64,000 bases of DNA from NCBI RefSeq assembly GCF_003334355.1, contig NZ_QOWP01000010.1. One strand, 5' to 3'. Origin of the DNA: Escherichia coli (GTDB lineage Bacteria > Pseudomonadota > Gammaproteobacteria > Enterobacterales > Enterobacteriaceae). Positions 1 through 57,503 of this stretch are shown one piece after another. Under the pieces are notes generated by a model that was given only the letters and a program-made list of their open reading frames with translations, made no database searches and was not told the origin of the DNA. Within the stretch, counting starts at the first letter, position 1, and the number at the start of each line of letters is the position of its first letter. The position numbers and the translations under genes were made by a program.

Positions 1-114
1 ATGCTTCCATCGGAAACGATGATCTGGCAGCCTGAGTTCACAGATAAAACACTCTCCAGGAAACCCGGGGCGGTTCATATCAGTCGTTATTATCTCAGGT
101 ACGGGATATGGTAG
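1..114 (+). CDS. possible 3' end of a gene truncated by the window edge; product not identifiable
   Basis: Frame +1 is open from nt 1 to a TAG at 112-114, while the other two + frames hit stops within about 35 nt. Too short to identify. Confidence 0.2.
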   Translation: MLPSETMIWQPEFTDKTLSRKPGAVHISRYYLRYGIW

Positions 115-160
115 ATGCACTATAAGATGTGTTAAAAACGCTGTAGCAGAATGAAGCGCG

Positions 161-194
161 GAATAAAAAAGCGGCAACTCAATAAAGTTGCCGC
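161..194 (-). terminator. rho-independent terminator downstream of pflA
   Basis: Perfect 9-bp inverted repeat gcggcaact/agttgccgc (171-179 / 186-194); on the minus strand it is followed by a U-run (complement of aaaaaa at 165-170). Confidence 0.6.
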
Positions 195-206
195 TTTACG
201 GGGAAA

Positions 207-947
207 TTAGAACATTACCTTATGACCGTACTGCTCAAGAATGCCTTTCACGCGTTCCATGGTCTCTTTCTTCGGTGGTTTAACACCGTCGAGTTTGTAC
301 TCTTCACCCATTGCCACCCATTTGTGTTTGCCCAGCTCGTGGTAGGGGAGAAGCTCGATTTTCTCAACGTTGCCCATATCACGGGTAAATTCACCGAGGC
401 GATGCGCTGAATCGTCATCGTCAGACCAGCCTGGGACAACAACGTAGCGGATCCACACCTTCACATTTTTGTTCGCCAGATATTTAGCGAACTCCAGCGT
501 GCGGTGGTTGGAAACTCCAACCAGATTTTGGTGGATCTCGTCGTTCATCTGTTTGAGATCGAGCATTACCAGGTCGGTTACTTCCAGCAGTTCATCAATC
601 ACCGGATCGTAACGACGAACAAAACCGTTGGTGTCCAGACAGGTATGAATGCCTTCTTTTTTGCAGGCGCGGAACCAGTCACGAACAAACTCAGCTTGCA
701 GGATTGCTTCACCGCCGGATGCGGTAACGCCGCCGCCGGAAGCGTTCATAAAGTGGCGATAGGTCACCACTTCCTTCATCAAATCTTCAACGGTAACTTC
801 TTTACCGCCATGCGTGTCCCAGGTGTCGCGGTTATGACAATACAGGCAGCGCATCAGGCAGCCCTGGAAAAAGGTGATAAAGCGAATACCCGGGCCGTCT
901 ACGGTTCCACAGGATTCAAAGGAGTGAATGCGACCAATAACTGACAT
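207..947 (-). CDS. pflA: pyruvate formate-lyase activating enzyme (radical SAM)
   Basis: Track ORF 207..974 trimmed to the internal ATG at 945-947, giving the known N-terminus [23 protein letters not shown] (246 aa); radical-SAM CxxxCxxC motif (CLMRCLYC). Confidence 0.95.
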
Positions 948-1070
948 TGCGGTGTTTCTCCAGATGTGGCCCATCTGAGGCCGTGTTGGTGCGCAGCTCG
1001 AAGGCTACGTCGAGTCTGTTTTGGCAGTCACCTTAAAGTATAGATAGCTGACAAAAAAGGCTCTCGCGCT

Positions 1071-1096
1071 AAAAAAGGCCCCACTTTCGTGGAGCC
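1071..1096 (-). terminator. rho-independent terminator downstream of pflB
   Basis: Imperfect hairpin ggccccac/tttc/gtggagcc (1077-1096) preceded on + by aaaaaa, i.e. a U-run after the hairpin on the minus strand. Confidence 0.5.
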
Positions 1097-1138
1097 TTTA
1101 TTGTACGCTTTTTACTGTACGATTTCAGTCAAATCTAA

Positions 1139-3421
<2,283 letters not shown>

Positions 3422-3475
3422 GTAACACCTACCTTCTTAAGTGGATTTTTTATTTACTGCGTACTTCGACAACCA

Positions 3476-4333
3476 TTAATGGTGGTCGTTTTCACGCAGG
3501 TAAATGACCCAGTATGTCAACCCAACCAACAAACCACCACCGATAATGTTGCCGATCGTAACCGGAATCAGGTTATCAGTGATGAAATTCATCACGGTCA
3601 GGTGAGAAAAATTTTCCGGTGCAGAACCGACTGCGGTCCAAAATTCCGGGGATGCGAAGTCGCGGATTACAATACCCATCGGGATCATAAACATGTTTGC
3701 GATACTGTGCTCAAAACCGCTGGCAACAAACATCGCGACCGGCAGCACCATAATGAACGCTTTGTCCATCAGGCTGCGGCCAGAATAACTCATCCATACT
3801 GCCAGACATACCATCAGGTTTGCCAGGATACCAAGACAGACGGCCTCAATAAAAGTATGGTGCACTTTGTGGTCGGCGGTTTGTAGGACGTTTAGTCCCC
3901 ATTGACCATTTGCGGTCATATACTCGCCGGAAAGCCACATTAAAAGTACAAACAGCAGTGCGCCGACCAGGTTGCCAAAATAGACATTTAGCCAGTTTTT
4001 CGCCAACTGACCCCAGGTGATGCGCCCACTCGCCTTAGCAACAACAATCAACACGGTGGAAGTAAAGAGATCGGCTCCGCAGACAACACAAAGAATCAGC
4101 CCCAGAGAGAAGCAAATGCCGCCAACCAGTTTTGCCATGCCGAAGGGCATTGTGCCTGTGCCAGTGGTTGCTGTGATATAGAAGACGAATGCGATTGAGA
4201 TGAAAACACCGGCGGTAATCGCCAGATAGAAAGTCTTAAGCGGATGTTTCGTTGCTTTATAGACACCCGCCTCTTCGGCCACTTTGGCCATTGCAGCAGG
4301 AAGTAAAAGATCAAAAGGGTTGTCAGCTTTCAC
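3476..4333 (-). CDS. focA: formate channel FocA (formate/nitrite transporter family)
   Basis: Track ORF is 343 aa; trimmed to the GTG at 4331-4333 (complement cac), which gives the known 285-aa protein starting (M)KADNPFDLLLPAAMAKVAEEAG. Confidence 0.9.
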   Translation of the reverse strand: MKADNPFDLLLPAAMAKVAEEAGVYKATKHPLKTFYLAITAGVFISIAFVFYITATTGTGTMPFGMAKLVGGICFSLGLILCVVCGADLFTSTVLIVVAKASGRITWGQLAKNWLNVYFGNLVGALLFVLLMWLSGEYMTANGQWGLNVLQTADHKVHHTFIEAVCLGILANLMVCLAVWMSYSGRSLMDKAFIMVLPVAMFVASGFEHSIANMFMIPMGIVIRDFASPEFWTAVGSAPENFSHLTVMNFITDNLIPVTIGNIIGGGLLVGLTYWVIYLRENDHH

Positions 4334-4393
4334 ACTAACTCTCTCTTTATTAAGTCGGCGACGAGATACTAACAAAGCATTATAGATGAGAAA

Positions 4394-4407
4394 TTGATAT
4401 AGATCAT
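4394..4407. promoter_or_regulatory. FNR-like binding site (TTGAT-N4-ATCAt)
   Basis: ttgatatagatcat at 4394-4407 matches the FNR consensus TTGAT-N4-ATCAA in 9 of 10 positions; lies about 60 bp upstream of the focA start. Confidence 0.45.
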
Positions 4408-4664
4408 ATCTCGCCTGGCTTATAGGCCCGTAACTCGCATGGTTTTTATGCAAATACGGAGTAAATATTTGATTATCCAAATAAAAATAAATTTTAAAAA
4501 TTAACAAATGAGTTGAATTTTTTCCGCATCCTCCGCTAAAACAGTTAATTAAAAGGGAGCATCAGGCGAATAAAGTAACAATATCGATCGTATTTATTAA
4601 ATACAAATTACCGATATTTAACCTTATAATTACAATTATTTTATTAATGCAAATATATGTAAAG

Positions 4665-4730
4665 CGGGGCATTAAAAAAACGCCCCGTAATATAACTCAG
4701 ACTAATCATTAAGCCTACATTGCGTAGGCT
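4665..4730 (-). terminator. hairpins immediately 3' of ycaO (putative terminator)
   Basis: Perfect hairpin agcctac/attgc/gtaggct (4712-4730) directly after the ycaO stop, then cggggc/gccccg stem (4665-4686) with a U7 run on the minus strand within its loop. Confidence 0.3.
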
Positions 4731-4738
4731 ATTTGATT

Positions 4739-6499
4739 TTATTTTGCCCAGAATGCTGCTTTGGCGCGCTGCAGCTTTTCGTAGGCCTTCAACAACGACT
4801 GATGTGCAGCAAACGCGTGCAGATCGCTATCTACCGGTTGCAGGCCGTAAAACGCCGCTTCGCCGCTCATTGCCGCACTGGCGGCTTCTACGGCATCTGC
4901 GCCGTACATGCGAACAAACGCATTCAGATATTGCAGCGGCTGGCGATCTTCTTCCTGTGCCAGTAATAACAACGTTTGCAGGCAGCGATAATAGTTGGCG
5001 CGTTCCGGACTAAATACTGATGAGTTAAACTCCATCGTCCATTCGGTCCAGACCAGAGCCTGTTCCAGATCGCCACCAGCCAGCGCCAGCATGGCTTTTA
5101 ATTCACCGATACGCAGGGTGTACCAACCGTTATCCGACCCGGTCGCCAGACCCAACAGCTCACGCACGCGGGTAAAGTCATCAAAACCTTCTTCATCCAG
5201 TTGCTCGATGAGGTTCAGGTAATCTTCTTTTTCCCACTCGCTGCCTGGTAGCGAAAGAATCGTTTCACGTAAATGGCTGCCCATACTGTTATTCGCGAGC
5301 CACAGATCTTCAGCCGGATAAATATCGGACATGCCAGGCACGATAATACGGCAAGCATAAACGCCCAGATGCTCGTAATCGGCAATATAAACTTCTTTAT
5401 CTTCTTTGTTGAAGATAGCCATCAGTGTGGCGAACTCTTCTTCCGTGGTGCCGGAGAAATTCCAGTCCACAAACGGATAATCGGCATCCTGCTTGAACAG
5501 GTCCCAGGAGATTAAACCGCTGGAATCGATAAAGTGCGTTTCGAGGTTGGTATGTTCAGCGACTTCTTCATCATCGAAGGTTGGCGGAGTAAACACATCC
5601 AAATCTTTCAGGCCACGACCTTGCAGCAGCTCGGTCACGGTACGTTCCAGTGCTACGCCAAAATCAGGATGCGCACCGAAAGAGGCAAAGCAGGTACCGT
5701 TAGCAGGATTGAACAGTACCACGCAAATCACCGGATACTGGCCGCCAAGCGAACCGTCATAAGCGAAGATTGGGAAACCCTCCGCTTCCAGCGTTTCGAT
5801 GGCTTCAACTACTGCTGGGTAACGCGCCAGCACGTCTGCCGGGATCTCTGGCAGGCTGATGCTTTCAGCAATAATGCGGTTTTTCACGTAGCGTTCGAAA
5901 ACTTCAGACAATCCCTGAACGCGTGCTTCGTTGCGGGTATTACCTGCGGACATACCGTTGGAGACGTACAGGTTACCAATGATATTCATCGGAATATAAA
6001 CGGTCTGATTGTCGGACTGACGCGTAAACGGCAGGCCGCAAATACCACGATCTTCGTTACCGGATTGTAGGTCAATCAGCATGCTGCCGGTCAGTTCATT
6101 CTCCGGATCATAAAACGCGCGCAGACGGTCATCGAGCAGCCCTTCTGGCACATCGTCATTTTCGGTCAGTGGGAACCATTTTTCGTTGGGATAATGCACG
6201 AACGGACCGTTGGCGATGGTTTCGCCCAGCCAGAAGTCCGCAAAAAAGTAGTTGGTTGAGAGACGCTCGAAATATTCACCGAGTGCAGAAGCCAGCGCCG
6301 CTTTCTTGGTTGCGCCTTTACCGTTGGTAAAACACAGTGCGCACTCTTTGTCGCGAATATGTACAGACCAGACGTTAGGCACGGGATTCAGCCAGGAGGC
6401 CTCTTCAATCTGAAAGCCGAGGTCTGAAAGTTTTTGCTGGAAGCGAGCGATGGAATCTTCCAGAGCGGCATCTTTGCCGGGGATAAATGTTTGCGTCAT
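4739..6499 (-). CDS. ycaO: YcaO protein (YcaO-domain ATP-dependent enzyme; S12 methylthiolation accessory factor)
   Basis: Track ORF is 597 aa; trimmed to the ATG at 6497-6499, giving MTQTFIPGKDAALEDSIARF (586 aa). Confidence 0.9.
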   Translation of the reverse strand: MTQTFIPGKDAALEDSIARFQQKLSDLGFQIEEASWLNPVPNVWSVHIRDKECALCFTNGKGATKKAALASALGEYFERLSTNYFFADFWLGETIANGPFVHYPNEKWFPLTENDDVPEGLLDDRLRAFYDPENELTGSMLIDLQSGNEDRGICGLPFTRQSDNQTVYIPMNIIGNLYVSNGMSAGNTRNEARVQGLSEVFERYVKNRIIAESISLPEIPADVLARYPAVVEAIETLEAEGFPIFAYDGSLGGQYPVICVVLFNPANGTCFASFGAHPDFGVALERTVTELLQGRGLKDLDVFTPPTFDDEEVAEHTNLETHFIDSSGLISWDLFKQDADYPFVDWNFSGTTEEEFATLMAIFNKEDKEVYIADYEHLGVYACRIIVPGMSDIYPAEDLWLANNSMGSHLRETILSLPGSEWEKEDYLNLIEQLDEEGFDDFTRVRELLGLATGSDNGWYTLRIGELKAMLALAGGDLEQALVWTEWTMEFNSSVFSPERANYYRCLQTLLLLAQEEDRQPLQYLNAFVRMYGADAVEAASAAMSGEAAFYGLQPVDSDLHAFAAHQSLLKAYEKLQRAKAAFWAK

Positions 6500-6628
6500 G
6501 AAAATCACTTTAGTCGTACGGAAAGCGCGCAATAATACGGGTTTTATCTCAAAGGCGCTATCACCGCCGCCATGCCGATGAACTGTTGACTATGCTTTTA
6601 GCGGATAAACCACGTTAAGAGCATAAAA

Positions 6629-7321
6629 ATGAAGGCGTTCGATCTCCACCGTATGGCATTTGATAAAGTGCCTTTTGATTTCCTTGGCGAAGTTGCACTA
6701 CGTAGTCTTTATACCTTTGTACTGGTCTTTTTGTTCCTCAAAATGACCGGAAGACGCGGTGTGCGGCAGATGTCGCTGTTTGAAGTTTTAATCATTCTGA
6801 CGCTGGGATCAGCGGCGGGAGATGTGGCGTTTTATGATGATGTGCCGATGGTCCCGGTACTTATCGTCTTTATTACTCTGGCGTTGTTATACCGCCTGGT
6901 AATGTGGTTGATGGCGCACAGTGAAAAACTGGAAGATCTTCTGGAAGGCAAGCCAGTTGTCATTATTGAAGATGGCGAGCTGGCCTGGTCGAAACTCAAT
7001 AACTCCAACATGACGGAATTTGAGTTCTTTATGGAGCTACGATTGCGTGGCGTGGAGCAGCTGGGGCAGGTACGTCTGGCGATTCTCGAAACCAACGGGC
7101 AAATCAGTGTCTATTTCTTTGAAGATGACAAGGTGAAACCGGGTTTACTTATTTTACCCAGTGATTGTACGCAGCGTTACAAAGTGGTGCCGGAGTCGGC
7201 GGACTATGCCTGTATTCGTTGTAGTGAAATCATTCATATGAAAGCGGGGGAAAAACAATTATGTCCGCGCTGTGCAAATCCAGAATGGACGAAGGCAAGT
7301 CGGGCAAAACGGGTGACCTGA
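6629..7321 (+). CDS. ycaP: DUF421-family inner membrane protein
   Basis: 230-aa ORF with hydrophobic N-terminal segments; recognised as YcaP. Confidence 0.85.
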   Translation: MKAFDLHRMAFDKVPFDFLGEVALRSLYTFVLVFLFLKMTGRRGVRQMSLFEVLIILTLGSAAGDVAFYDDVPMVPVLIVFITLALLYRLVMWLMAHSEKLEDLLEGKPVVIIEDGELAWSKLNNSNMTEFEFFMELRLRGVEQLGQVRLAILETNGQISVYFFEDDKVKPGLLILPSDCTQRYKVVPESADYACIRCSEIIHMKAGEKQLCPRCANPEWTKASRAKRVT

Positions 7322-7367
7322 CAGTAAAAACATCGGCTTTTTGCTAATAATCCGAGAGATTCTTTTG

Positions 7368-7383
7368 TGTGATGCAAGCCACA
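7368..7383. promoter_or_regulatory. CRP-like site upstream of serC
   Basis: tgtgatgcaagccaca resembles the CRP consensus TGTGA-N6-TCACA (one mismatch in the right half); about 140 bp upstream of serC. Confidence 0.3.
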
Positions 7384-7519
7384 TTTTTGCCCTCAACGGT
7401 TTTACTCATTGCGATGTGTGTCACTGAATGATAAAACCGATAGCCACAGGAATAATGTATTACCTGTGGTCGCAATCGATTGACCGCGGGTTAATAGCAA
7501 CGCAACGTGGTGAGGGGAA

Positions 7520-8608
7520 ATGGCTCAAATCTTCAATTTTAGTTCTGGTCCGGCAATGCTACCGGCAGAGGTGCTTAAACAGGCTCAACAGGAACTGCGC
7601 GACTGGAACGGTCTTGGTACGTCGGTGATGGAAGTGAGTCACCGTGGCAAAGAGTTCATTCAGGTTGCAGAGGAAGCCGAGAAGGATTTTCGCGATCTTC
7701 TTAATGTCCCCTCCAACTACAAGGTATTATTCTGCCATGGCGGTGGTCGCGGTCAGTTTGCTGCGGTACCGCTGAATATTCTCGGTGATAAAACCACCGC
7801 AGATTATGTTGATGCCGGTTACTGGGCGGCAAGTGCCATTAAAGAAGCGAAAAAATACTGCACGCCTAATGTCTTTGACGCCAAAGTGACTGTTGATGGT
7901 CTGCGCGCGGTTAAGCCAATGCGTGAATGGCAACTCTCTGATAATGCTGCTTATATGCATTATTGCCCGAATGAAACCATCGATGGTATCGCCATCGACG
8001 AAACGCCAGACTTCGGCGCAGATGTGGTGGTCGCCGCTGACTTCTCTTCAACCATTCTTTCCCGTCCGATTGACGTCAGCCGTTATGGTGTAATTTACGC
8101 TGGCGCGCAGAAAAATATCGGCCCGGCTGGCCTGACAATCGTCATCGTTCGTGAAGATTTGCTGGGCAAAGCGAATATCGCGTGTCCGTCGATTCTGGAT
8201 TATTCCATCCTCAACGATAACGGCTCCATGTTTAACACGCCGCCGACATTTGCCTGGTATCTATCTGGTCTGGTCTTTAAATGGCTGAAAGCGAACGGCG
8301 GTGTAGCTGAAATGGATAAAATCAATCAGCAAAAAGCAGAACTGCTATATGGGGTGATTGATAACAGCGATTTCTACCGCAATGACGTGGCGAAAGCTAA
8401 CCGTTCGCGGATGAACGTGCCGTTCCAGTTGGCGGACAGTGCGCTTGACAAATTGTTCCTTGAAGAGTCTTTTGCTGCTGGCCTTCATGCACTGAAAGGT
8501 CACCGTGTGGTCGGCGGAATGCGCGCTTCTATTTATAACGCCATGCCGCTGGAAGGCGTTAAAGCGCTGACAGACTTCATGGTTGAGTTCGAACGCCGTC
8601 ACGGTTAA
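7520..8608 (+). CDS. serC: phosphoserine aminotransferase
   Basis: 362-aa ORF; [26 protein letters not shown] recognised. Confidence 0.97.
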
Positions 8609-8627
8609 TGCCGAAATTTTGCTTAAT

Positions 8628-8656
8628 CCCCACAGCCAGCCTGTGGGGTTTTTATT
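8628..8656 (+). terminator. intercistronic hairpin + T-run between serC and aroA (partial terminator/attenuator)
   Basis: Perfect 8-bp stem ccccacag/ctgtgggg with loop ccagc, followed by tttttattt; sits in the 70-bp serC-aroA spacer. Confidence 0.6.
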
Positions 8657-8678
8657 TCTGTTGTAGAGAGTTGAGTTC

Positions 8679-9962
8679 ATGGAATCCCTGACGTTACAAC
8701 CCATCGCTCGTGTCGATGGCACTATTAATCTGCCCGGTTCCAAGAGCGTTTCTAACCGCGCTTTATTGCTGGCGGCATTAGCACACGGCAAAACAGTATT
8801 AACCAATCTGCTGGATAGCGATGACGTGCGCCATATGCTGAATGCATTAACAGCGTTAGGGGTAAGCTATACGCTTTCAGCCGATCGTACGCGTTGCGAA
8901 ATTATCGGTAACGGCGGTCCATTACACGCAGAAGGTGCCCTGGAGTTGTTCCTCGGTAACGCCGGAACGGCAATGCGTCCGCTGGCGGCAGCTCTTTGTC
9001 TGGGTAGCAATGATATTGTGCTGACCGGTGAGCCGCGTATGAAAGAACGCCCGATTGGTCATCTGGTGGATGCGCTGCGCCTGGGCGGGGCGAAGATCAC
9101 TTACCTGGAACAAGAAAATTATCCGCCGTTGCGTTTACAGGGCGGCTTTACTGGCGGCAACGTTGACGTTGATGGCTCCGTTTCCAGCCAATTCCTCACC
9201 GCACTGTTAATGACTGCGCCTCTTGCGCCGGAAGATACGGTGATTCGTATTAAAGGCGATCTGGTTTCTAAACCTTATATCGACATCACACTCAATCTGA
9301 TGAAGACGTTTGGTGTTGAAATTGAAAATCAGCACTATCAACAATTTGTCGTAAAAGGCGGGCAGTCTTATCAGTCTCCGGGTACTTATTTGGTCGAAGG
9401 CGATGCATCTTCGGCTTCTTACTTTCTGGCAGCAGCAGCAATCAAAGGCGGCACTGTAAAAGTGACCGGTATTGGACGTAACAGTATGCAGGGTGATATT
9501 CGCTTTGCTGATGTGCTGGAAAAAATGGGCGCGACCATTTGCTGGGGCGATGATTATATTTCCTGCACGCGTGGTGAACTGAACGCTATTGATATGGATA
9601 TGAACCATATTCCTGATGCGGCGATGACCATTGCCACGGCGGCGTTATTTGCAAAAGGCACCACCACGCTGCGCAATATCTATAACTGGCGTGTTAAAGA
9701 GACCGATCGCCTGTTTGCGATGGCAACAGAACTGCGTAAAGTCGGCGCGGAAGTGGAAGAGGGGCACGATTACATTCGTATCACTCCTCCGGAAAAACTG
9801 AACTTTGCCGAGATCGCGACATACAATGATCACCGGATGGCGATGTGTTTCTCGCTGGTGGCGTTGTCAGATACACCAGTGACGATTCTTGATCCCAAAT
9901 GCACGGCCAAAACATTTCCGGATTATTTCGAGCAGCTGGCGCGGATTAGCCAGGCAGCCTGA
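8679..9962 (+). CDS. aroA: 3-phosphoshikimate 1-carboxyvinyltransferase (EPSP synthase)
   Basis: 427-aa ORF; [35 protein letters not shown] recognised. Confidence 0.97.
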
Positions 9963-10001
9963 ATGAACAACGGGCAATAAATAGCCAAATCTTTCTTTAT
10001 C

Positions 10002-10032
10002 AAAACGTCGGCACATTGTCGGCGTTTTTTTT
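10002..10032 (+). terminator. aroA rho-independent terminator
   Basis: Stem cgtcggc/gtcggcg (with two G-U pairs) around loop acatt, followed by T8 (10025-10032). Confidence 0.5.
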
Positions 10033-10130
10033 CGGACCTTGTGAGTCATTTTGATTAATGGTAGCGTCGCTTGTCAATGTAAGTTGTTGATACATAATAT
10101 TTATATATGATTAATCAACGGATGATTCAC

Positions 10131-10895
10131 ATGAAGAATACTAAATTACTGCTGGCGATTGCGACCTCTGCAGCATTACTGACAGGGTGTCAAAATACCC
10201 ACGGTATTGATACCAATATGGCTATCAGCTCCGGTTTAAATGCCTATAAAGCAGCAACATTAAGCGATGCCGATGCAAAAGCGATTGCCAATCAGGGCTG
10301 TGCCGAAATGGACAGCGGCAATCAAGTCGCAAGTAAATCCAGCAAGTACGGTAAACGTCTGGCAAAAATCGCCAAAGCATTGGGTAACAATATTAATGGC
10401 ACGCCGGTCAACTATAAGGTTTATATGACCAGCGACGTCAACGCATGGGCGATGGCGAACGGCTGTGTTCGTGTCTACAGTGGCCTGATGGACATGATGA
10501 ATGACAACGAAATTGAAGGCGTTCTGGGCCATGAACTGGGCCACGTCGCGTTGGGTCACTCGCTGGCTGAAATGAAAGCTTCTTATGCGATCGTTGCCGC
10601 ACGCGATGCCATTTCAGCTACCAGCGGTGTGGCTTCCCAGCTTTCCCGCTCACAATTAGGTGATATCGCAGAAGGCGCTATCAATGCTAAATACTCCCGT
10701 GATAAAGAGTCCGAAGCAGATGATTTCTCCTTTGATCTGTTGAAGAAACGTGGCATCAGCACCCAGGGGCTGGTTGGCAGCTTTGAAAAACTGGCTAGCC
10801 TGGATGGCGGTCGCACCCAGTCCATGTTTGACTCTCACCCACCATCAACAGAGCGTGCGCAACACATCCGTGATCGTATCGCCTCTGGTAAGTAA
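10131..10895 (+). CDS. ycaL: M48-family zinc metalloprotease lipoprotein
   Basis: Trimmed to the ATG at 10131, giving MKNTKLLLAIATSAALLTGC (lipobox LTGC); HELGH zinc motif present; 254 aa. Confidence 0.9.
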   Translation: MKNTKLLLAIATSAALLTGCQNTHGIDTNMAISSGLNAYKAATLSDADAKAIANQGCAEMDSGNQVASKSSKYGKRLAKIAKALGNNINGTPVNYKVYMTSDVNAWAMANGCVRVYSGLMDMMNDNEIEGVLGHELGHVALGHSLAEMKASYAIVAARDAISATSGVASQLSRSQLGDIAEGAINAKYSRDKESEADDFSFDLLKKRGISTQGLVGSFEKLASLDGGRTQSMFDSHPPSTERAQHIRDRIASGK

Positions 10896-11067
10896 ATCAT
10901 TGTCATCTTTCGGGCTGGTCTTCTGCCAGCCCGCTATAATTGCGCAATAAATCCCCATCTGAATACAGACAAAACTGGTTTTTGCACACAACGTTAACGA
11001 TTTGTGGCGTCGGCGCGTATAATGCGCGCGGTTATGTTAACGGTACGCCTGTTTTAAGGAGATAAAG

Positions 11068-11751
11068 ATGACGGCAATTGCCCCGGTTATTACCATTGAT
11101 GGCCCAAGCGGTGCAGGGAAAGGCACCTTGTGTAAGGCTATGGCGGAAGCGTTGCAATGGCATCTGCTGGACTCGGGTGCAATTTATCGCGTACTGGCAT
11201 TGGCGGCATTACATCACCATGTTGATGTTGCGTCGGAAGATGCGCTGGTACCGCTGGCATCCCATCTGGATGTACGTTTTGTGTCGACCAATGGCAATCT
11301 GGAAGTGATCCTCGAAGGGGAAGATGTCAGCGGCGAAATTCGTACTCAGGAAGTGGCGAATGCAGCTTCACAAGTCGCGGCATTCCCACGCGTTCGTGAA
11401 GCATTATTGCGTCGCCAACGCGCGTTTCGCGAATTACCAGGTCTGATTGCCGATGGCCGCGACATGGGAACGGTGGTATTCCCTGATGCACCAGTGAAAA
11501 TTTTCCTTGACGCCTCCTCGGAAGAACGTGCGCATCGCCGCATGCTACAGTTGCAGGAGAAGGGCTTTAGTGTTAACTTTGAGCGCCTTTTGGCCGAGAT
11601 CAAAGAACGCGACGACCGCGATCGTAACCGAGCGGTAGCGCCACTGGTTCCGGCAGCCGATGCTTTAGTGTTGGATTCCACCACCTTAAGCATTGAGCAA
11701 GTGATTGAAAAAGCGCTACAATACGCGCGCCAGAAATTGGCTCTCGCATAA
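11068..11751 (+). CDS. cmk: cytidylate kinase
   Basis: 227-aa ORF; P-loop GPSGAGKGT; recognised as Cmk. Confidence 0.95.
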
Positions 11752-11861
11752 GCGACCGAATTTGCAGTACCCCCGTTGCAATGGAATGACAGCGGGTATG
11801 TTAAACAACCCCATCCGGCATGGAGCCAGGTGGACGTTAAATATAAACCTGAAGATTAAAC
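11752..11861 (+). promoter_or_regulatory. rpsA leader / translational-operator region
   Basis: 110-bp leader with no obvious Shine-Dalgarno sequence immediately upstream of the rpsA ATG; rpsA is known to be autoregulated through its leader. Confidence 0.4.
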
Positions 11862-43142: not shown

Positions 43143-43910
43143 TTACCCCTGTTTTCTCAGGCGAGTTTCAGACTCACCACGCTGCATTACCCGTTGCAAC
43201 ACTTCCGCTTCCAGCTCCGCTAATCGCACCGACCCTAACCGGCGCGGACGGGGGATATCCACCGTCAAATCCAGACCAATTTTTCCCTCTTCAATTAACA
43301 ACACCCGGTCAGCCATTGCTACCGCTTCGCTCACATCATGCGTCACCAACAGTACGGTAAAGCCGTGCTCCTGCCAAAGTGACACAATCAAATCCTGCAT
43401 CTCGAGTCGCGTTAAGGCATCCAGCGCACCGAGCGGTTCATCAAGCAACAATAAACCCGGTCGATGAATCAACGCTCTTGCCAGCGCCACTCGCTGTTTC
43501 TGCCCGCCAGAAAGTGCGGCAGGCCATTCCCCGGCGCGATTCTCCAGTCCTACCGCAGCCAACGCTCGACGTGCGGCATCGCGCCACTGGCCTTTAAGGC
43601 CTAACCCAACGTTATCAATCACCGATTTCCACGGTAGCAGACGCGCATCCTGAAACATCATTCGCGTGTCTTCCTGAATTTCAGCCAGCGGTGTGGTGCC
43701 CGCTAACACATCGCCTGCGGTTGGCGTTTCCAGACCTGCCAGCAGGCGCAGCAGGGTACTTTTGCCACCACCGCTGCGGCCCACCACCGCCACAAACTGA
43801 CCTGCCGGAATATGTAAATCCAGTTGGTTCAGGACGATATTTTCCGCGTAATGTTTGCTTACTGCATTGAGCAACAATGGTGTGCCCTGGTTCAGACGAG
43901 CAGTATTCAT
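43143..43910 (-). CDS. ssuB: aliphatic sulfonate ABC transporter ATP-binding protein
   Basis: 255-aa ORF; Walker [10 protein letters not shown], signature LSGGQKQR. Confidence 0.93.
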
Positions 43911-44698
43911 ACCGTGGCCTCCTTCAAATGATAAGCCGGGTTCCAGCGCAACCAGAGGCGCTCTAACAGCTGCGCGCTGACGTCAGCCAGTTTGCCGAGC
44001 AGGGCGTAAAGAATAATAGCGACTACCACCACGTCCGTTTGCAAAAACTCCCGCGCATTCATCGCCAGATAACCAATGCCGGAATTGGCAGAAATGGTTT
44101 CGGCAACAATCAGCGTCAGCCACATCAGGCCCAACGCAAAACGCACTCCGACCATAATTGAGGGCAGGGCACCAGGCAGGATCACATGGATAAACAGCGG
44201 TATGCCGGATAATCCATAGCTACGCGCCATCTCCACCAACCCGCGATCGATATTACGGATGCCATGCCAGGTGTTGATATAAATGGGGAATAGCGTACCG
44301 AGCGCCACCAGAAAGATTTTTGCGGATTCATCAATGCCAAACCACAAAATCACCAGCGGGATCAGCGCCAGATGCGGCACGTTGCGCAACATCTGAATTG
44401 AGGTATCCAGCAGCCGTTCTCCCCAGCGAGATAGCCCGCTAATCAGTCCCAAAATCAACCCCAGCGATCCGCCAATTGAAAAGCCAATCAGCGCCCGCCA
44501 GGAGCTGATCGCCAGATGCTGCCACAGTTCGCCGCTGGCGGAGAGCGTCCAGAACGCCGTCACCACTCCTTCCGGTGAAGGCAAAATACGCGTCGACAGC
44601 CAGCCAACCGAGGAGGCCAGTTGCCACACCGCCACGATGCCCACCGGTAAAAACCAGGGGGCAACGCGCAATAACCACTTCTTCACTGGCGTTGCCAT
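43907..44698 (-). CDS. ssuC: aliphatic sulfonate ABC transporter permease
   Basis: Trimmed to the ATG at 44696-44698 ([16 protein letters not shown], 263 aa). Confidence 0.9.
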
Positions 44699-44708
44699 TA
44701 TTTCTTCC

Positions 44709-45854
44709 TTAGCTTTGCGCGACTTTACGGGGGATAAAATCATTCGCCACCGCTTCGCCTTGCGGATTCAGCGGCTGCGGCTGGGGAATTTCCGGGATGG
44801 CGACATCCAGAAGCGGGAACAGCAACTCGCCAACCCGATACGCTTCTTCCAGATGCGGATAGCCCGAAAGCACAAAACTGTCGATGCCAAGCGCGGCATA
44901 TTCGTTGATTCGCGCAGCGACCGTAGGACCATCGCCCACCAGCGCCGTCCCGGCACCGCCGCGCACTAAGCCAACGCCCGCCCATAAATTGGGGCTGATC
45001 TCCAGATTGTCGCGCTTGCCGTTATGTAACGCCGCCATTCGCTGTTGCCCTACGGAATCCGTCCGGGCGAATGCGGCCTGTGCTTTGGCGATAGTTTCAT
45101 CATCAAGATGCGAGATTAACCGCTCGGCGGCCTGCCACGCTTCGTCGTTAGTTTCACGAACAATCACATGCAGACGAATACCGAAACGAATTTTGCGTCC
45201 ATGCGCGGCAGCTTTCGCCCGCACTTGTTCGATTTTCTCTTTAACCAGTTCCGGCGGTTCGCCCCAGGTGAGGTAGAGATCAACCTGTTCTGCCGCCAGC
45301 TCCTGGGCGACATCTGACGATCCGCCAAAGTAAAGTGGCGGATACGGCTGTTGAATCGCCGGGAAGAGCAGTTTTGCTCCGCGCACATGAATATGTTTAC
45401 CGTTGAAATCGACGGTTTCTCCCTGCAATAAACGCCGCCAGACCTGGGTAAATTCCGCCGAGGCTTCGTAGCGCTCGCTATGATCAAGGAACACTCCGTC
45501 GCCTGCCAGCTCTTGTGGATCGCTGCCTGTGACCAGGTTAAACAACGCACGTCCATTTGAGAGACGGTCAAGCGTGGCGGCCAGGCGGGCGGCAACGGTA
45601 GGTGAGGTTACGCTGGGACGCAGGGCGACAAGAAACTTCAGCCGCTGCGTCACCGGGATCATCGATGCGGCAACCAGCCACGCATCTTCGCAGGAGCGCC
45701 CCGTTGGAATTAGCACACCGGTATAGCCAAGACGATCCGCCGCTTGCGCAATTTGTTGCAGATAACCGTGATCAACCGGGCGTGAACCTTCTTCCGTTCC
45801 CAGATAATGCCCGTCACCGTGGGTCGGTAAAAACCAGAACATATTCAGACTCAT
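44709..45854 (-). CDS. ssuD: FMNH2-dependent alkanesulfonate monooxygenase
   Basis: 381-aa ORF; luciferase-like monooxygenase; [19 protein letters not shown]. Confidence 0.95.
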
Positions 45855-46810
45855 AATTGTTTTCCTTCCAGTTGAGTGGGCTGCCAGATGCGCTGGCGAA
45901 TATCGACTTTTTTCGGCACCAGACGATTTTCATAAAACAGATCTGCCGTTTGCTGCTGTAAGGCGGCAACCTCGGCGTTAACCGGTTTGATGGTGGTAGG
46001 AGGGCGATGATCTAAGTAAGAGGCAATCACCGGTGCCGGTAAGCCCATCGTTTTTGCCAGTAAAGCGATGCTTTGCTCGCGCTGGCTGCGGGTTAACGCA
46101 TCGGCCTCACTAAAGGTTGCCAGTACGCCCTGAATAAAAGCGCCGTTTTTTTCTGCATAGGGACGAGCTGCCAGATAAAACGATCCAGTTTGATTGAGAT
46201 CGGTGCCGTCTTTCAGCACCCGCACGCCGCCCTGTAATAATGCAGCAGAGTAGTAGGGATCCCAGATAGCCCAGGCGTCAACGTTACCTTGCTGGAACGC
46301 GGCGCGGGCATCAGCGGGCGTCAGGTAAGTGGGTTGGATATCGGTAAACTTAAGTCCGGCCTGACGCAGTGCACGCAGTAAAAGGTTGTGTGAACTGGAA
46401 CCTTTCTGAAAGGCAACTTTGTGACCTTTAAGATCGGCTACGGTTTTGATCGGGCTGTTTTCTGCCACCAGAATCACTTCGGCTTTGGGCTTCGGTGGCT
46501 CGACGCCCACGTACACCAAATCAGCCCCGGCAGCCTGGGCAAAGATTGGCGGAATATCCCCGGTACTGCCGAGATCAATACTGCCAACGTTTAACGCTTC
46601 CAACATTTGCGGACCCGCGGGGAACTCCACCCAGGAGATTTTTGATTCCGGATAGCGTTTTTCCAGTAACTGGTGGCTTTTTGCCAGCACCATACCAATA
46701 CTGCCTTTCTGATAGCCTATACGTAACGCTTCAGGCGAGGATTCTGCAGCAACCGCAAAAGTAGAGACGCTAAGCAATCCCGCCAGCGCCAGTTTAATGA
46801 TGTTACGCAT
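45851..46810 (-). CDS. ssuA: aliphatic sulfonate periplasmic binding protein
   Basis: Trimmed to the ATG at 46808-46810 ([22 protein letters not shown] signal peptide, 319 aa). Confidence 0.9.
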
Positions 46811-47378
46811 GGGCATTACCTCGCAGAGACAGAAGGTCAGGAACCTGAACATCGCGGCGGTGCAATGCCTGCCAGAAAGTTTCTAGCGCGGTATCAAGAC
46901 GGGTTTGCAGATTTGGCGTGAACTGGGGTCTGTGATGGTAATCAATTACTTGTGAGTCATCGGCAAACACGCCGTGCAGGATCTCCTGAGCTTTCAGTGC
47001 GCTTAAAACTGGTTTAAGGGCATAATCGACCGCCAGCAGATGGGCCACGGTACCGCCCGTCGCCAGCGGTAGCACCACTTTGCCTTGCAAAGCGCGTTCT
47101 GGCAGCAGGTCGAGCAGGGTTTTCAACGCACCGGAATAGGCGGCTTTATACACAGGCGTGGCGACAATCAGCCCATCGGCCTGTTGCAGCTGTTCGGTGA
47201 AGGTCTTGAGTGCCGGACTATCGAAACGAGCATAAAGTAGATCTTCCGGGGCGAAGTTTTGCAGATTCCAGTGATAAACCTCTACATCCAGGCCATTTAG
47301 TTTTTCCCGCGCATATTCCAGCAAGGAGCTGGAGCGAGAAGGAAAGCGAGGACTACCCGCCAGGGTGATGACACGCAT
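46803..47378 (-). CDS. ssuE: NAD(P)H-dependent FMN reductase
   Basis: 191-aa ORF; MRVITLAGSPRFPSRSS; overlaps the ssuA start by 8 nt. Confidence 0.93.
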   Translation of the reverse strand: MRVITLAGSPRFPSRSSSLLEYAREKLNGLDVEVYHWNLQNFAPEDLLYARFDSPALKTFTEQLQQADGLIVATPVYKAAYSGALKTLLDLLPERALQGKVVLPLATGGTVAHLLAVDYALKPVLSALKAQEILHGVFADDSQVIDYHHRPQFTPNLQTRLDTALETFWQALHRRDVQVPDLLSLRGNAHA

Positions 47379-47733
47379 ACTCTCTCCTTATAACCAATTG
47401 TTCTTTTTTTGTTAACATTGATAACAATTCGGTCAGTCTGTCGGAGAGACAAGAAAATTCCAAATATAAATTTTGTGTATCTTTTTCTGAAAATAAACTA
47501 AAGAAAGGGCTTTATATATCACGCATATTTATTTATTGGATAGTCATTAGATGTTGAATCAATGAATTACTCGTTCAGTTAATATTTAAATATTCATGAA
47601 ATCTATAAATTAAAGATTTGTCACTTATTGGATTTAGTATGCTTGATTTAAATGGCGGACAATTATTGTTATTATTAAGTCTAATGTCATTTAAAGGCAT
47701 TATCATATTTACGAAGAGATCAGGATGATAACG
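47379..47733. promoter_or_regulatory. divergent AT-rich control region between ssuE and elfA
   Basis: 355-bp strongly AT-rich spacer between divergent operons; the ssu promoter (sulfate-starvation control) and the elf promoter are expected here. Function is inferred. Confidence 0.4.
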
Positions 47734-55817: not shown

Positions 55818-56360
55818 ATGCGAATTAAACCAGACGATAACTGGCGTTGGTATTACGATGAAGAGCACGATCGAATGATGCTCGATTTAGCCAATGGTAT
55901 GCTATTTCGCTCACGTTTTGCGCGCAAGATGTTGACTCCAGATGCCTTTTCTCCCGCAGGCTTTTGCGTTGACGACGCCGCGCTCTATTTCTCTTTTGAA
56001 GAAAAGTGCCGCGATTTTAATTTATCTAAAGAACAAAAAGCCGAACTGGTGCTGAATGCACTGGTAGCAATTCGCTATCTCAAACCGCAAATGCCGAAAA
56101 GCTGGCATTTTGTTTCCCATGGTGAAATGTGGGTGCCCATGCCGGGCGATGCGGCCTGCGTTTGGTTGAGCGATACTCACGAGCAGGTCAATTTGCTGGT
56201 CGTTGAATCTGGCGAAAATGCCGCACTATGCCTGCTGGCACAACCCTGCGTTGTTATTGCGGGTCGCGCGATGCAGTTGGGCGACGCCATTAAAATCATG
56301 AACGACAGGCTGAAACCGCAGGTTAATGTTGACAGCTTCAGCCTCGAACAGGCAGTCTAA
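55818..56360 (+). CDS. zapC: cell division protein ZapC
   Basis: Trimmed to the ATG at 55818 ([24 protein letters not shown], 180 aa). Confidence 0.9.
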
Positions 56361-57466
56361 CGCGCCAACTTAAGTGCAGTCTTCGGTACACAGCTACAGC
56401 AAAGAATGGTGCCATCATCGCCCATTGCTGATTTTTTCAGCGGCGTGACTTCGCCTTCTAAAAGCTGAACACGGCAACTTCCACAAATGCCCGCGCGGCA
56501 AGAATAAGGGATACGAATTCCCTGATTTTCTAATTGCTCCAGCAACACCTGTTGGTTATTTCCACGAAATGCCTGTCCCTGCCAGTCAATATCTACATTT
56601 GCGTCCGGTTGTTGCGTGATGTTGGCGGTATCATCAGCGGCAGCTGCGCCGTAAATTTTTGCCGGAGCCGTTGCCAGAATTTCCACCTCATCGCCAACGC
56701 GAATCACGCCGCTATTACGGGCAATTAAATTCTGACCAAAATCGACATCGCCGTTATCCTGGGCAGTGCGGAAAGATTGCAATGTTTTTAATGGTTCGCC
56801 TGCCGGATGTTTTTGCCCTTTTTCTGGGCTGACGGTGGTGAAAATACAGCGGCTACAAGGTTTAACCACATCAAACACCACATCACCAATGCGAATCACT
56901 TTCCAGCGATCTTCTTCCCAGGCTGACGCGCCGGAAACCACCAGATTGGGGCGGAATTGCTCCATTTTTACACTGGCCGGACAACGTTGTTGGAGATCAC
57001 GTAACGAGGCTTCGTTAGCAAGAAGGTAAGGATAGCCATCAGCAAATGACAGAGGTACAGTGTTGTGGCGTTTCACGCGCCGGGTCATTTGTGGCCCCAC
57101 CCAGCGTAATTGCACTTCGCGGGAGAAAAATCCACTTAGCCATTTGTTGATCGCGTCTGGCGCAATTCGCGCGGTAAAATGTGTGCCCCAAACTTCGGTT
57201 GGTGCGTCTTGTGTGGCGAAATCAGCAAAACGAACATATGCGCTACTGCCATCTGGTGCGGTGAGATGCAAGCCATCATGCACAGGTGAAGGAGTAAACC
57301 GTACCATCTGGGGAAACTGGCGAGCGGTAATAAACGTACCGTCAGGTTCCGTGATCATAAAGATGCGATCGAAGGCCAGACCACTGACATCTGCCAGAGC
57401 ATGTGTAAGACCAATGCCGCGCATCGATTTAACAGGATGAATAAAAAGCCGGATTAATGTCGCCAC
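56357..57466 (-). CDS. ycbX: MOSC-domain protein with C-terminal 2Fe-2S ferredoxin-like domain
   Basis: 369-aa ORF starting at a GTG (complement cac at 57464-57466); [17 protein letters not shown]; C-terminal Cys cluster CRAGICGSC. Confidence 0.85.
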
Positions 57467-57503
57467 GGTGCGGTCCTCAAATGAAAATAAGCCCTCAACT
57501 TTA

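Follow-up and report, generated by a model that had tools for sequence, protein, structure and literature searches.

YcaO Locus and Gene Product

What does a YcaO enzyme do when no biosynthetic partner is encoded beside it, and on what does it act? The Escherichia coli gene ycaO raises both questions, and we addressed them in a 64-kb window (the whole stretch of DNA analyzed here) that derives from the E. coli K-12 MG1655 chromosome; a 3.5-kb query around ycaO was 100% identical to K-12. Both the locus and its function are already known, the function having been published in 2026. The reading that we favor, and consider very probable, is that ycaO encodes a stand-alone thioamidase of residue Met82 in ribosomal protein uL16, the function being taken from one laboratory's 2026 paper together with a 2020 structure. 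The ycaO query was matched in every one of 5426 complete E. coli genomes (5426/5426), with at least 80% query coverage in 5420 of them. The features of the region are as follows.

4739..6499, minus strand: ycaO coding sequence for 586 aa, with its stop codon; very probably an ATP-dependent uL16 backbone thioamidase (ORF, RefSeq, PDB identity, NF040716, PMC13063428)
5327..6325, minus strand: YcaO catalytic domain (aa 59–391), ATP/Mg2+ binding (PF02624, residue conservation, variants in PMC13063428)
4757..5281, minus strand: YcaO_C domain (aa 407–581), TPR-like; dimerization and a possible contribution to uL16 binding (PF18381, Discussion of PMC13063428)
4665..4738, minus strand: two terminator-like RNA hairpins that begin where ycaO ends (RNA fold, sequence)
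4334..4664, minus strand: AT-rich ycaO–focA spacer, the upstream regulatory region of focA-pflB (composition, small-ORF listing, PMC7550191)

The ycaO reading frame lies on the minus strand, running from an ATG at 6499 to a TAA at 4739–4741, and its product comprises 586 aa. A mechanical list of ORFs starts the gene further upstream, at a TTG at 6532; we prefer the 586-aa start because it gives a residue-for-residue match to PDB 4Q84 from position 1 to 586. The product (hereafter EcYcaO; UniProt P75838) is the protein of PDB entries 4Q84, 4Q85, and 4Q86 across its full 586-residue length, and thus has the same sequence as the nucleotide-bound crystal structures 4Q85 and 4Q86. RefSeq likewise places ycaO at 4739–6499 on the minus strand, naming its product “S12 methylthiotransferase accessory factor.” By the ORF, the RefSeq annotation, and the identity to 4Q84, the original prediction had both the coordinates and the identity of the gene exactly right.

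The protein has two domains, a YcaO domain at aa 59–391 (Pfam PF02624, E-value 4e-75) and a YcaO_C domain at aa 407–581 (Pfam PF18381, E-value 3.5e-65). EcYcaO scored 574.8 bits against the YcaO superfamily model TIGR00702 (cutoff 75.65), placing it in the superfamily, and 917.2 bits against the NCBIfam equivalog NF040716 (cutoff 700). The superfamily ligands of ATP and Mg2+ (E75, E78, E199, E202, R203, R286, and E290) are all present, and each is kept in at least 89% of relatives, as computed on 56 full-length representatives of the EcYcaO clade. The protein is strongly acidic, with a computed pI of 4.38 (92 Asp plus Glu vs. 42 Lys plus Arg); the computed values of its relatives range from 4.5 to 5.7. 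EcYcaO thus combines the three features by which we recognized the uL16-thioamidating clade, namely the match to NF040716, the YcaO_C domain, and the strongly acidic pI.

Thioamidation of uL16 Met82

The function is drawn from published work on this same protein, in which genetic and in vitro evidence showed that EcYcaO thioamidates the backbone of uL16 at Met82 using ATP and sulfide (Rice et al., Biochemistry 2026, PMC13063428). When EcYcaO was screened proteome-wide against 4,403 E. coli proteins with AlphaFold3, three confident partners emerged, uL16, uL29, and EcYcaO itself, of which only uL16 sits in the active site of EcYcaO (ipTM 0.81 for the EcYcaO–uL16 pair; PMC13063428). Ribosomes from a ycaO deletion strain lost the +16 Da mark at uL16 Met82, and high-resolution MS/MS at this residue fitted a substitution of sulfur for oxygen with an error of 0.1 ppm, vs. 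11.2 ppm for loss of oxygen (PMC13063428). Co-expression of uL16 with EcYcaO gave complete modification; E202A and other variants of the ATP site left thioamidation incomplete (PMC13063428). With purified MBP-EcYcaO, modification of full-length uL16 required Na2S, MgCl2, and ATP together (PMC13063428). Folded uL16 was bound with a Kd of 9.8 nM and no partner protein was necessary, and uL16 loop peptides of 11–24 residues were neither bound nor modified (PMC13063428). The Klebsiella pneumoniae and Pseudomonas aeruginosa orthologs each thioamidate their own uL16 (PMC13063428).

The same authors regard a strongly acidic pI, near 4.4 and thus a complement to the basic uL16, as the defining trait of uL16-modifying YcaO proteins, and they describe EcYcaO as a homodimer whose subunits are joined through the TPR-like C-terminal domain (PMC13063428). 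The computed pI and the conserved ATP/Mg2+ ligands reported above agree with the features that they stress. The thioamide itself had been visible in a 2.0 Å cryo-EM map of a 2020 structure, and it is present in aerobically grown cells (PMC7550191). Deletion of ycaO alone leaves growth normal; in a roxA deletion strain, which grows slowly in minimal medium, it acts epistatically and rescues growth (PMC13063428).

In the scheme that we favor, EcYcaO works as an acidic homodimer on a substrate whose gene, rplP, lies far from ycaO. Folded, free uL16 is held tightly through a broad, charge-complementary surface of the enzyme, as binding and substrate-scope experiments show (PMC13063428), and, following the AlphaFold3 model, the loop that carries Arg81-Met82 would enter the active site. 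A sulfide equivalent would attack the Met82 carbonyl, ATP would phosphorylate the tetrahedral oxyanion, and departure of the phosphate would leave a C=S thioamide; the requirements for ATP, Mg2+, and sulfide are published, and the presumed order of these steps is that of the general YcaO mechanism. The resulting thioamide adjoins the peptidyl-transferase center, and modification of uL16 would presumably precede ribosome assembly. With recognition built into EcYcaO itself and a conserved housekeeping protein serving as substrate, neither an E1-like, RRE, or TfuA partner nor a precursor peptide is necessary.

The S12 Annotation

The name under which the gene is annotated points to a different substrate. 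According to this annotation, EcYcaO mainly helps RimO to methylthiolate Asp88 of uS12, and the original prediction had followed it in proposing a role in S12 modification rather than natural-product synthesis. We consider this unlikely to be the main function, although the name is carried by RefSeq, by NCBIfam NF040716, and by the PDB, and although two published observations speak for a connection: tagged uS12 co-purified EcYcaO, and deletion of ycaO reduced uS12 methylthiolation from 99 to 84% (PMC13063428). Against it, RimO by itself suffices in vitro for modification of an S12 peptide, and deletion of rimO removes the uS12 mark completely (PMC13063428). AlphaFold3 ipTM values with EcYcaO were 0.31 for uS12 and 0.16 for RimO, compared with the much higher value for uL16 (PMC13063428). 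An ATP-dependent active site that activates amides has no obvious part in radical-SAM methylthiolation, rimO is absent from the annotation of the window, and the small effect on uS12 could come indirectly from altered ribosome maturation. The effect of ycaO on S12 is probably minor and indirect. What holds of the original prediction is that the enzyme acts on the ribosome and not in natural-product synthesis; its S12 role reflects an old annotation, and uL16 Met82 is the demonstrated substrate.

Genomic Neighborhood and Search for Partners

In the RefSeq annotation, ycaO is followed downstream by focA (3476–4333, minus strand) and faces the divergently transcribed ycaP (6629–7321, plus strand) upstream. 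Farther out, pflB and pflA lie beyond focA, and serC, aroA, ycaL, cmk, and rpsA are found on the other side. The flanking genes fall into unrelated families by NCBIfam (FocA, PflB, PflA, SerC, AroA, and a LoiP-type protease), and YcaP is a YetF/DUF421 membrane protein. The gaps between the genes around ycaO measure 405, 129, and 198 bp, leaving little room for hidden genes. Ten non-annotated ORFs of 43–750 aa in the flanks had no meaningful NCBIfam match, the sole one having an E-value of 0.095. The 750-aa ORF, itself without a meaningful match, runs antisense to pflB.

Intergenic small ORFs near ycaO were not rich in Cys, Ser, and Thr, their highest fraction being 0.28, compared with 0.20 ± 0.09 in the background (104 small ORFs of 15–120 aa from the ycaO region). 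A search of positions 1–14000 against Rfam returned no families, and the curated K-12 reference lists neither a small protein nor an sRNA adjoining ycaO. No E1-like, RRE, or dehydrogenase genes were found in the flanks, and the annotation of the whole 64-kb window contains no TfuA, ThiF/E1-like, ThiS, rimO, rplP, or roxA; E. coli as a whole encodes no TfuA (PMC13063428). The sulfur-related genes of the window, ssuEADCB and ycbX, lie 37–51 kb from ycaO, belong to unrelated pathways, and were set aside as candidates. The original prediction had described ycaO as standing alone between focA and ycaP, a description that the RefSeq positions and the unrelated families of the flanking genes bear out. 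It had also seen no precursor peptide nearby, in agreement with the absence of any convincing candidate among the intergenic small ORFs, and no E1-like or TfuA-like gene, as the NCBIfam assignments of the flanks and the window annotation confirm. A precursor ORF or a partner domain adjoining ycaO, either of which it had named as contrary evidence, was looked for in the flanks and not found.

The same isolation is seen in other genomes. The neighborhoods of five diverse YcaO relatives were all different and contained no TfuA, ThiF, ThiS, or rhodanese, and when ORFs were clustered over 80 related loci, no neighbor family occurred in more than 9 of the 80. With nothing recurring above this level in either comparison, we rejected a hidden conserved partner of YcaO. 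A solitary context is general among YcaO relatives.

A functional link to the neighbors, either focA-pflB-pflA (anaerobic formate metabolism) or ycaP, appears very improbable to us. Synteny of ycaO with focA-pfl has been reported across Gammaproteobacteria (PMC7550191), and ycaO and focA share a strand in the window. However, this synteny is confined to some Gammaproteobacteria and is lost in other lineages, the thioamide is formed in aerobic cells as well (PMC7550191), and the AlphaFold3 ipTM of YcaP with EcYcaO is 0.11 (PMC13063428). The region between the two genes also speaks against a link. Immediately 3′ of the ycaO stop codon lie two stable hairpins, at 4704–4738 and 4665–4687, the second trailed by CUUU...; the region folds at −30.1 kcal/mol (z = −4.67), and none of 200 shuffled sequences folded equally well. 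By their sequence and predicted fold, these hairpins look like terminators, which is consistent with transcription of ycaO apart from focA-pflB, and focA-pfl has been found to be transcribed independently (PMC7550191). Consensus scans for promoters and terminators across 4200–7600 did not rise above chance, finding 4 and 3 sites where 5.0 and 4.0 were expected. The 405-bp intergenic region has a GC content of 0.31, and the small-ORF listing contains no convincing peptide ORF in the spacer. The spacer at 4334–4664 is the focA-pflB regulatory region and lies outside any ycaO system.

We can practically dismiss the reading of EcYcaO as a cryptic enzyme of RiPP synthesis, a cyclodehydratase that would form azolines, amidines, or thioamides on a small precursor encoded nearby or elsewhere: it belongs to a superfamily whose characterized members mostly act on RiPP precursors (PMC13063428), but its flanks hold no small ORF that is rich in Cys, Ser, and Thr or convincing in another way and no E1-like, RRE, or dehydrogenase gene, it scores 43.7 bits against the TOMM SagD model TIGR03604 (cutoff 219), it is core to all 5426 E. 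coli genomes, unlike an accessory biosynthetic cluster, and its substrate is folded uL16, not the loop peptides (PMC13063428).

Comparison With Known YcaO Systems

As a stand-alone uL16 thioamidase, EcYcaO can be set beside four known groups. The first is its own database entry (P75838; 4Q84, 4Q85, and 4Q86; NF040716), with which the gene studied here shares its sequence, the K-12 locus, and the two-domain architecture; only the database name is outdated. The second comprises fusions of an OsmC domain to a YcaO domain, described by TIGR03549. Like EcYcaO, these have a YcaO plus YcaO_C core (54% identity), are acidic (pI 4.7), and lack conserved neighbors; unlike EcYcaO, they carry an N-terminal module of ∼125–140 aa with an OsmC/Ohr fold and three invariant cysteines. 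EcYcaO aligned only to positions 148–722 of the TIGR03549 profile and, at 682 bits, stayed under its cutoff of 900, so that it falls outside the fusion type.

The third is the methanogen enzyme that modifies a glycine of McrA (TIGR03266; Methanocaldococcus jannaschii MJ1094, PDB 6PE3), with which EcYcaO shares the chemistry, an ATP-dependent exchange of backbone oxygen for sulfur in a full-size protein (PMC13063428), and a distant similarity in the ATP-binding core. The methanogen enzyme lacks the YcaO_C/TPR domain, takes short McrA peptides, and often occurs with TfuA and a ThiS-like carrier, whereas EcYcaO requires folded uL16 and functions in an organism without TfuA (PMC13063428). The score of EcYcaO against TIGR03266 was 39.1 bits (cutoff 365), placing it outside the TfuA-associated type. 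The azoline-forming enzymes SagD, McbD, BalhD, and LynD/TruD (TIGR03604) have in common with it the YcaO fold and ATP-dependent O-phosphorylation of a hemiorthoamide (PMC13063428). They differ in using a side-chain Cys, Ser, or Thr nucleophile and in receiving their precursor through an E1-like/RRE partner, the genes lying together; EcYcaO has neither precursor nor partner and, by its SagD score, is not of the TOMM type.

An OsmC-Like Module in a Sister Clade

Because the published in vitro reaction needs non-physiological sulfide, a component is likely to be missing from it. A lead on its nature came from outside the window. When representatives clustered at 50% identity were searched exhaustively, the third-best match to EcYcaO was a 729-aa protein (P0003) with 54% identity over the full length of EcYcaO and ∼147 extra residues at its N-terminus. 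It has a pI of 4.72 and the Pfam architecture OsmC plus YcaO plus YcaO_C. A full-length OsmC–YcaO fusion was present in all of the 80 best loci of 594 matches (one genome per species), a total that includes bare YcaO forms, one search pattern being common to E. coli. The hosts included Shewanella, Marinomonas, Marinobacter, Colwellia, Legionella, Idiomarina, Pseudoalteromonas, Microbulbifer, and Vreelandella, and further fusions came from a Nitrosomonas MAG and from Bacteriovoracia and Myxococcota MAGs. In a neighbor-joining tree (no bootstrap), the fused proteins formed one tight clade, sister to the bare E. coli-type group; at least 80 species belong to it.

The module is very strongly conserved. 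Cysteines C50, C59, and C112 (P0003 numbering) were invariant among 78 fused proteins, and columns at least 90% conserved made up 55% of the module vs. 46% of the catalytic part. A structural model of the module, of moderate confidence (pLDDT 75), matched only OsmC/Ohr-family structures in the PDB. The YcaO domain itself offers no candidate for a persulfide site, with no invariant cysteine across the 56 clade members (C383 is kept in 75% and C53 in 66%).

One of the enzymes with validated activity seems to be of this type. The cloning primer for the P. aeruginosa ortholog PaYcaO (Table S4 in Rice et al., PMC13063428) encodes MVEVKVNFL, the N-terminus of the module, and in several loci it fits the beginning of the module ORF with 3–4 substitutions. 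Because the primer encodes this N-terminus and matches the module ORF starts, the validated P. aeruginosa uL16 thioamidase (PaYcaO, Q9I2H8) appears, judging by sequence, to be a fused protein. The word OsmC is absent from the main text and the supporting-information document of the paper, apart from an entry for E. coli OsmC in the ipTM tables; the OsmC-like module thus goes unmentioned in PMC13063428, and our observation of it is a lead beyond the window.

The candidates compared here as a separate counterpart of the module were rejected. A six-frame search of the window with a module HMM gave no match (best E-value 0.99; positive controls scored 269–271 bits). A homolog search for a free-standing module yielded mostly fragments of fusions on short contigs, and two short “OsmC” genes in complete genomes (P0172 and P0198) were frameshifted fusions whose out-of-frame tails overlap ycaO. 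Two E. coli proteins, YhfA and OsmC, were compared with the module: YhfA aligned by BLASTP over 28 residues only (E-value 0.002 in a single comparison) and was negative with the module HMM; OsmC had no BLASTP match, was likewise negative with the HMM, and has an AlphaFold3 ipTM of 0.15 with EcYcaO (PMC13063428).

We tentatively raise the idea, doubtful as it is, that bare E. coli YcaO may be one half of what the sister clade has as a two-module thioamidation machine, the fused form being carried by many other Pseudomonadota. By analogy, the module could take up a persulfide and then release sulfide, or hand it over, where ATP has activated the amide, while a resolving cysteine closes a disulfide. 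ThiI, with its two-cysteine chemistry in 4-thiouridine synthesis, provides the parallel. If this were true, E. coli and its relatives would depend on free sulfide, or on an unlinked carrier acting in trans, as their source of sulfur. Alternatively, the module may be a peroxidase that guards the thioamide or the enzyme, a possibility that we rate as less interesting.

Implications

For E. coli, the main consequence is a correction: a core gene still named “S12 methylthiotransferase accessory factor” actually encodes, by the published evidence, a uL16 thioamidase, the source of one of the only two backbone thioamides known in proteins. For the family, EcYcaO illustrates that a YcaO enzyme can dispense with genomic partners, given that it acts on a conserved housekeeping protein. 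The fused OsmC-like cysteine module, which concerns related genomes and not the ycaO locus described here, offers a testable lead on how sulfur is delivered.

Genomic surroundings of ycaO

Two very stable hairpins (z = -4.67) lie directly 3′ of the ycaO stop codon. Neither was called on the minus strand by a consensus terminator scan, which reported the first palindrome after ycaO on the plus strand only. The neighboring ycaP product carries a CxxC-x16-CxxC motif (CIRC...CPRC) at its very end (amino acids 194–226). Pfam searches gave only weak zinc-ribbon matches to this motif (E 0.07–0.7), and the tail may be a cytoplasmic zinc-binding element. Antisense to pflB, over nearly its whole length, runs a 750-aa ORF. 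Since no NCBIfam family matches this ORF, it is most likely not a gene but the shadow ORF of a gene with high expression and codon bias. Two sulfur-related loci, ssuEADCB and ycbX, are located 37–51 kb from ycaO, and nothing connects either of them with thioamidation; the ycbX product is a MOSC-domain protein.

Features of the window
1148-3400, plus strand: 750-aa ORF antisense to pflB
4665-4738, minus strand: two hairpins 3′ of ycaO
6629-7321, plus strand: ycaP, YetF/DUF421 membrane protein
43144-47379: ssuEADCB, sulfonate-sulfur utilization operon
56358-57467: ycbX, annotated as 6-N-hydroxylaminopurine resistance protein YcbX

In E. coli KFu015 (NZ_CP147130.1), the region corresponding to window positions 4000–7500 matches as two pieces, and an IS1A-family element is annotated among ycaO, ycaP and focA. 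This strain is a rare case of disruption or insertion at a locus that is otherwise universally conserved.

Cysteines of the YcaO part

No invariant cysteine was found across the wider radiation of YcaO proteins lacking an OsmC-like module. Two cysteines of the E. coli protein (EcYcaO) are common to E. coli and the clade of OsmC-YcaO fusions, Cys56 in 76 of 78 fused proteins and Cys383 in all 78. Position 70 lies beside two residues of the ATP site, S71 and E75; 74 of the 78 fused proteins have Cys here, whereas E. coli has Ala.

EcYcaO residues in the window
about 6332-6334, minus strand: residue 56
about 6290-6292, minus strand: residue 70
about 5351-5353, minus strand: residue 383

An OsmC/Ohr-fold module in the sister clade

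In the sister clade of EcYcaO, an OsmC/Ohr-fold module of ∼125–140 aa is fused N-terminally to YcaO (best 80 loci, L011–L090; 729-aa representative P0003). At least 90% conservation was seen in 55% of the module's columns across Gamma- and Betaproteobacteria, Bacteriovoracia and Myxococcota. In two complete genomes a frameshift in the linker caused the fusion to be called as two overlapping genes with out-of-frame tails rich in Arg/Pro/Gly; the fetched loci have a GC content of 59–62%, and the frameshift is either a sequencing error or genuine pseudogenization or splitting.

OsmC-YcaO fusion loci
L058:8001-10157: example, Shewanella xiamenensis
L093:5001-7203: frameshifted, CP162753.1
L094:5001-7206: frameshifted, CP162825.1

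The primer used for the P. aeruginosa orthologue (PaYcaO) encodes the N-terminus of the OsmC-like module, a domain discussed nowhere in that paper (PMC13063428). The module has three invariant cysteines, and its role could possibly be sulfur relay or protection.
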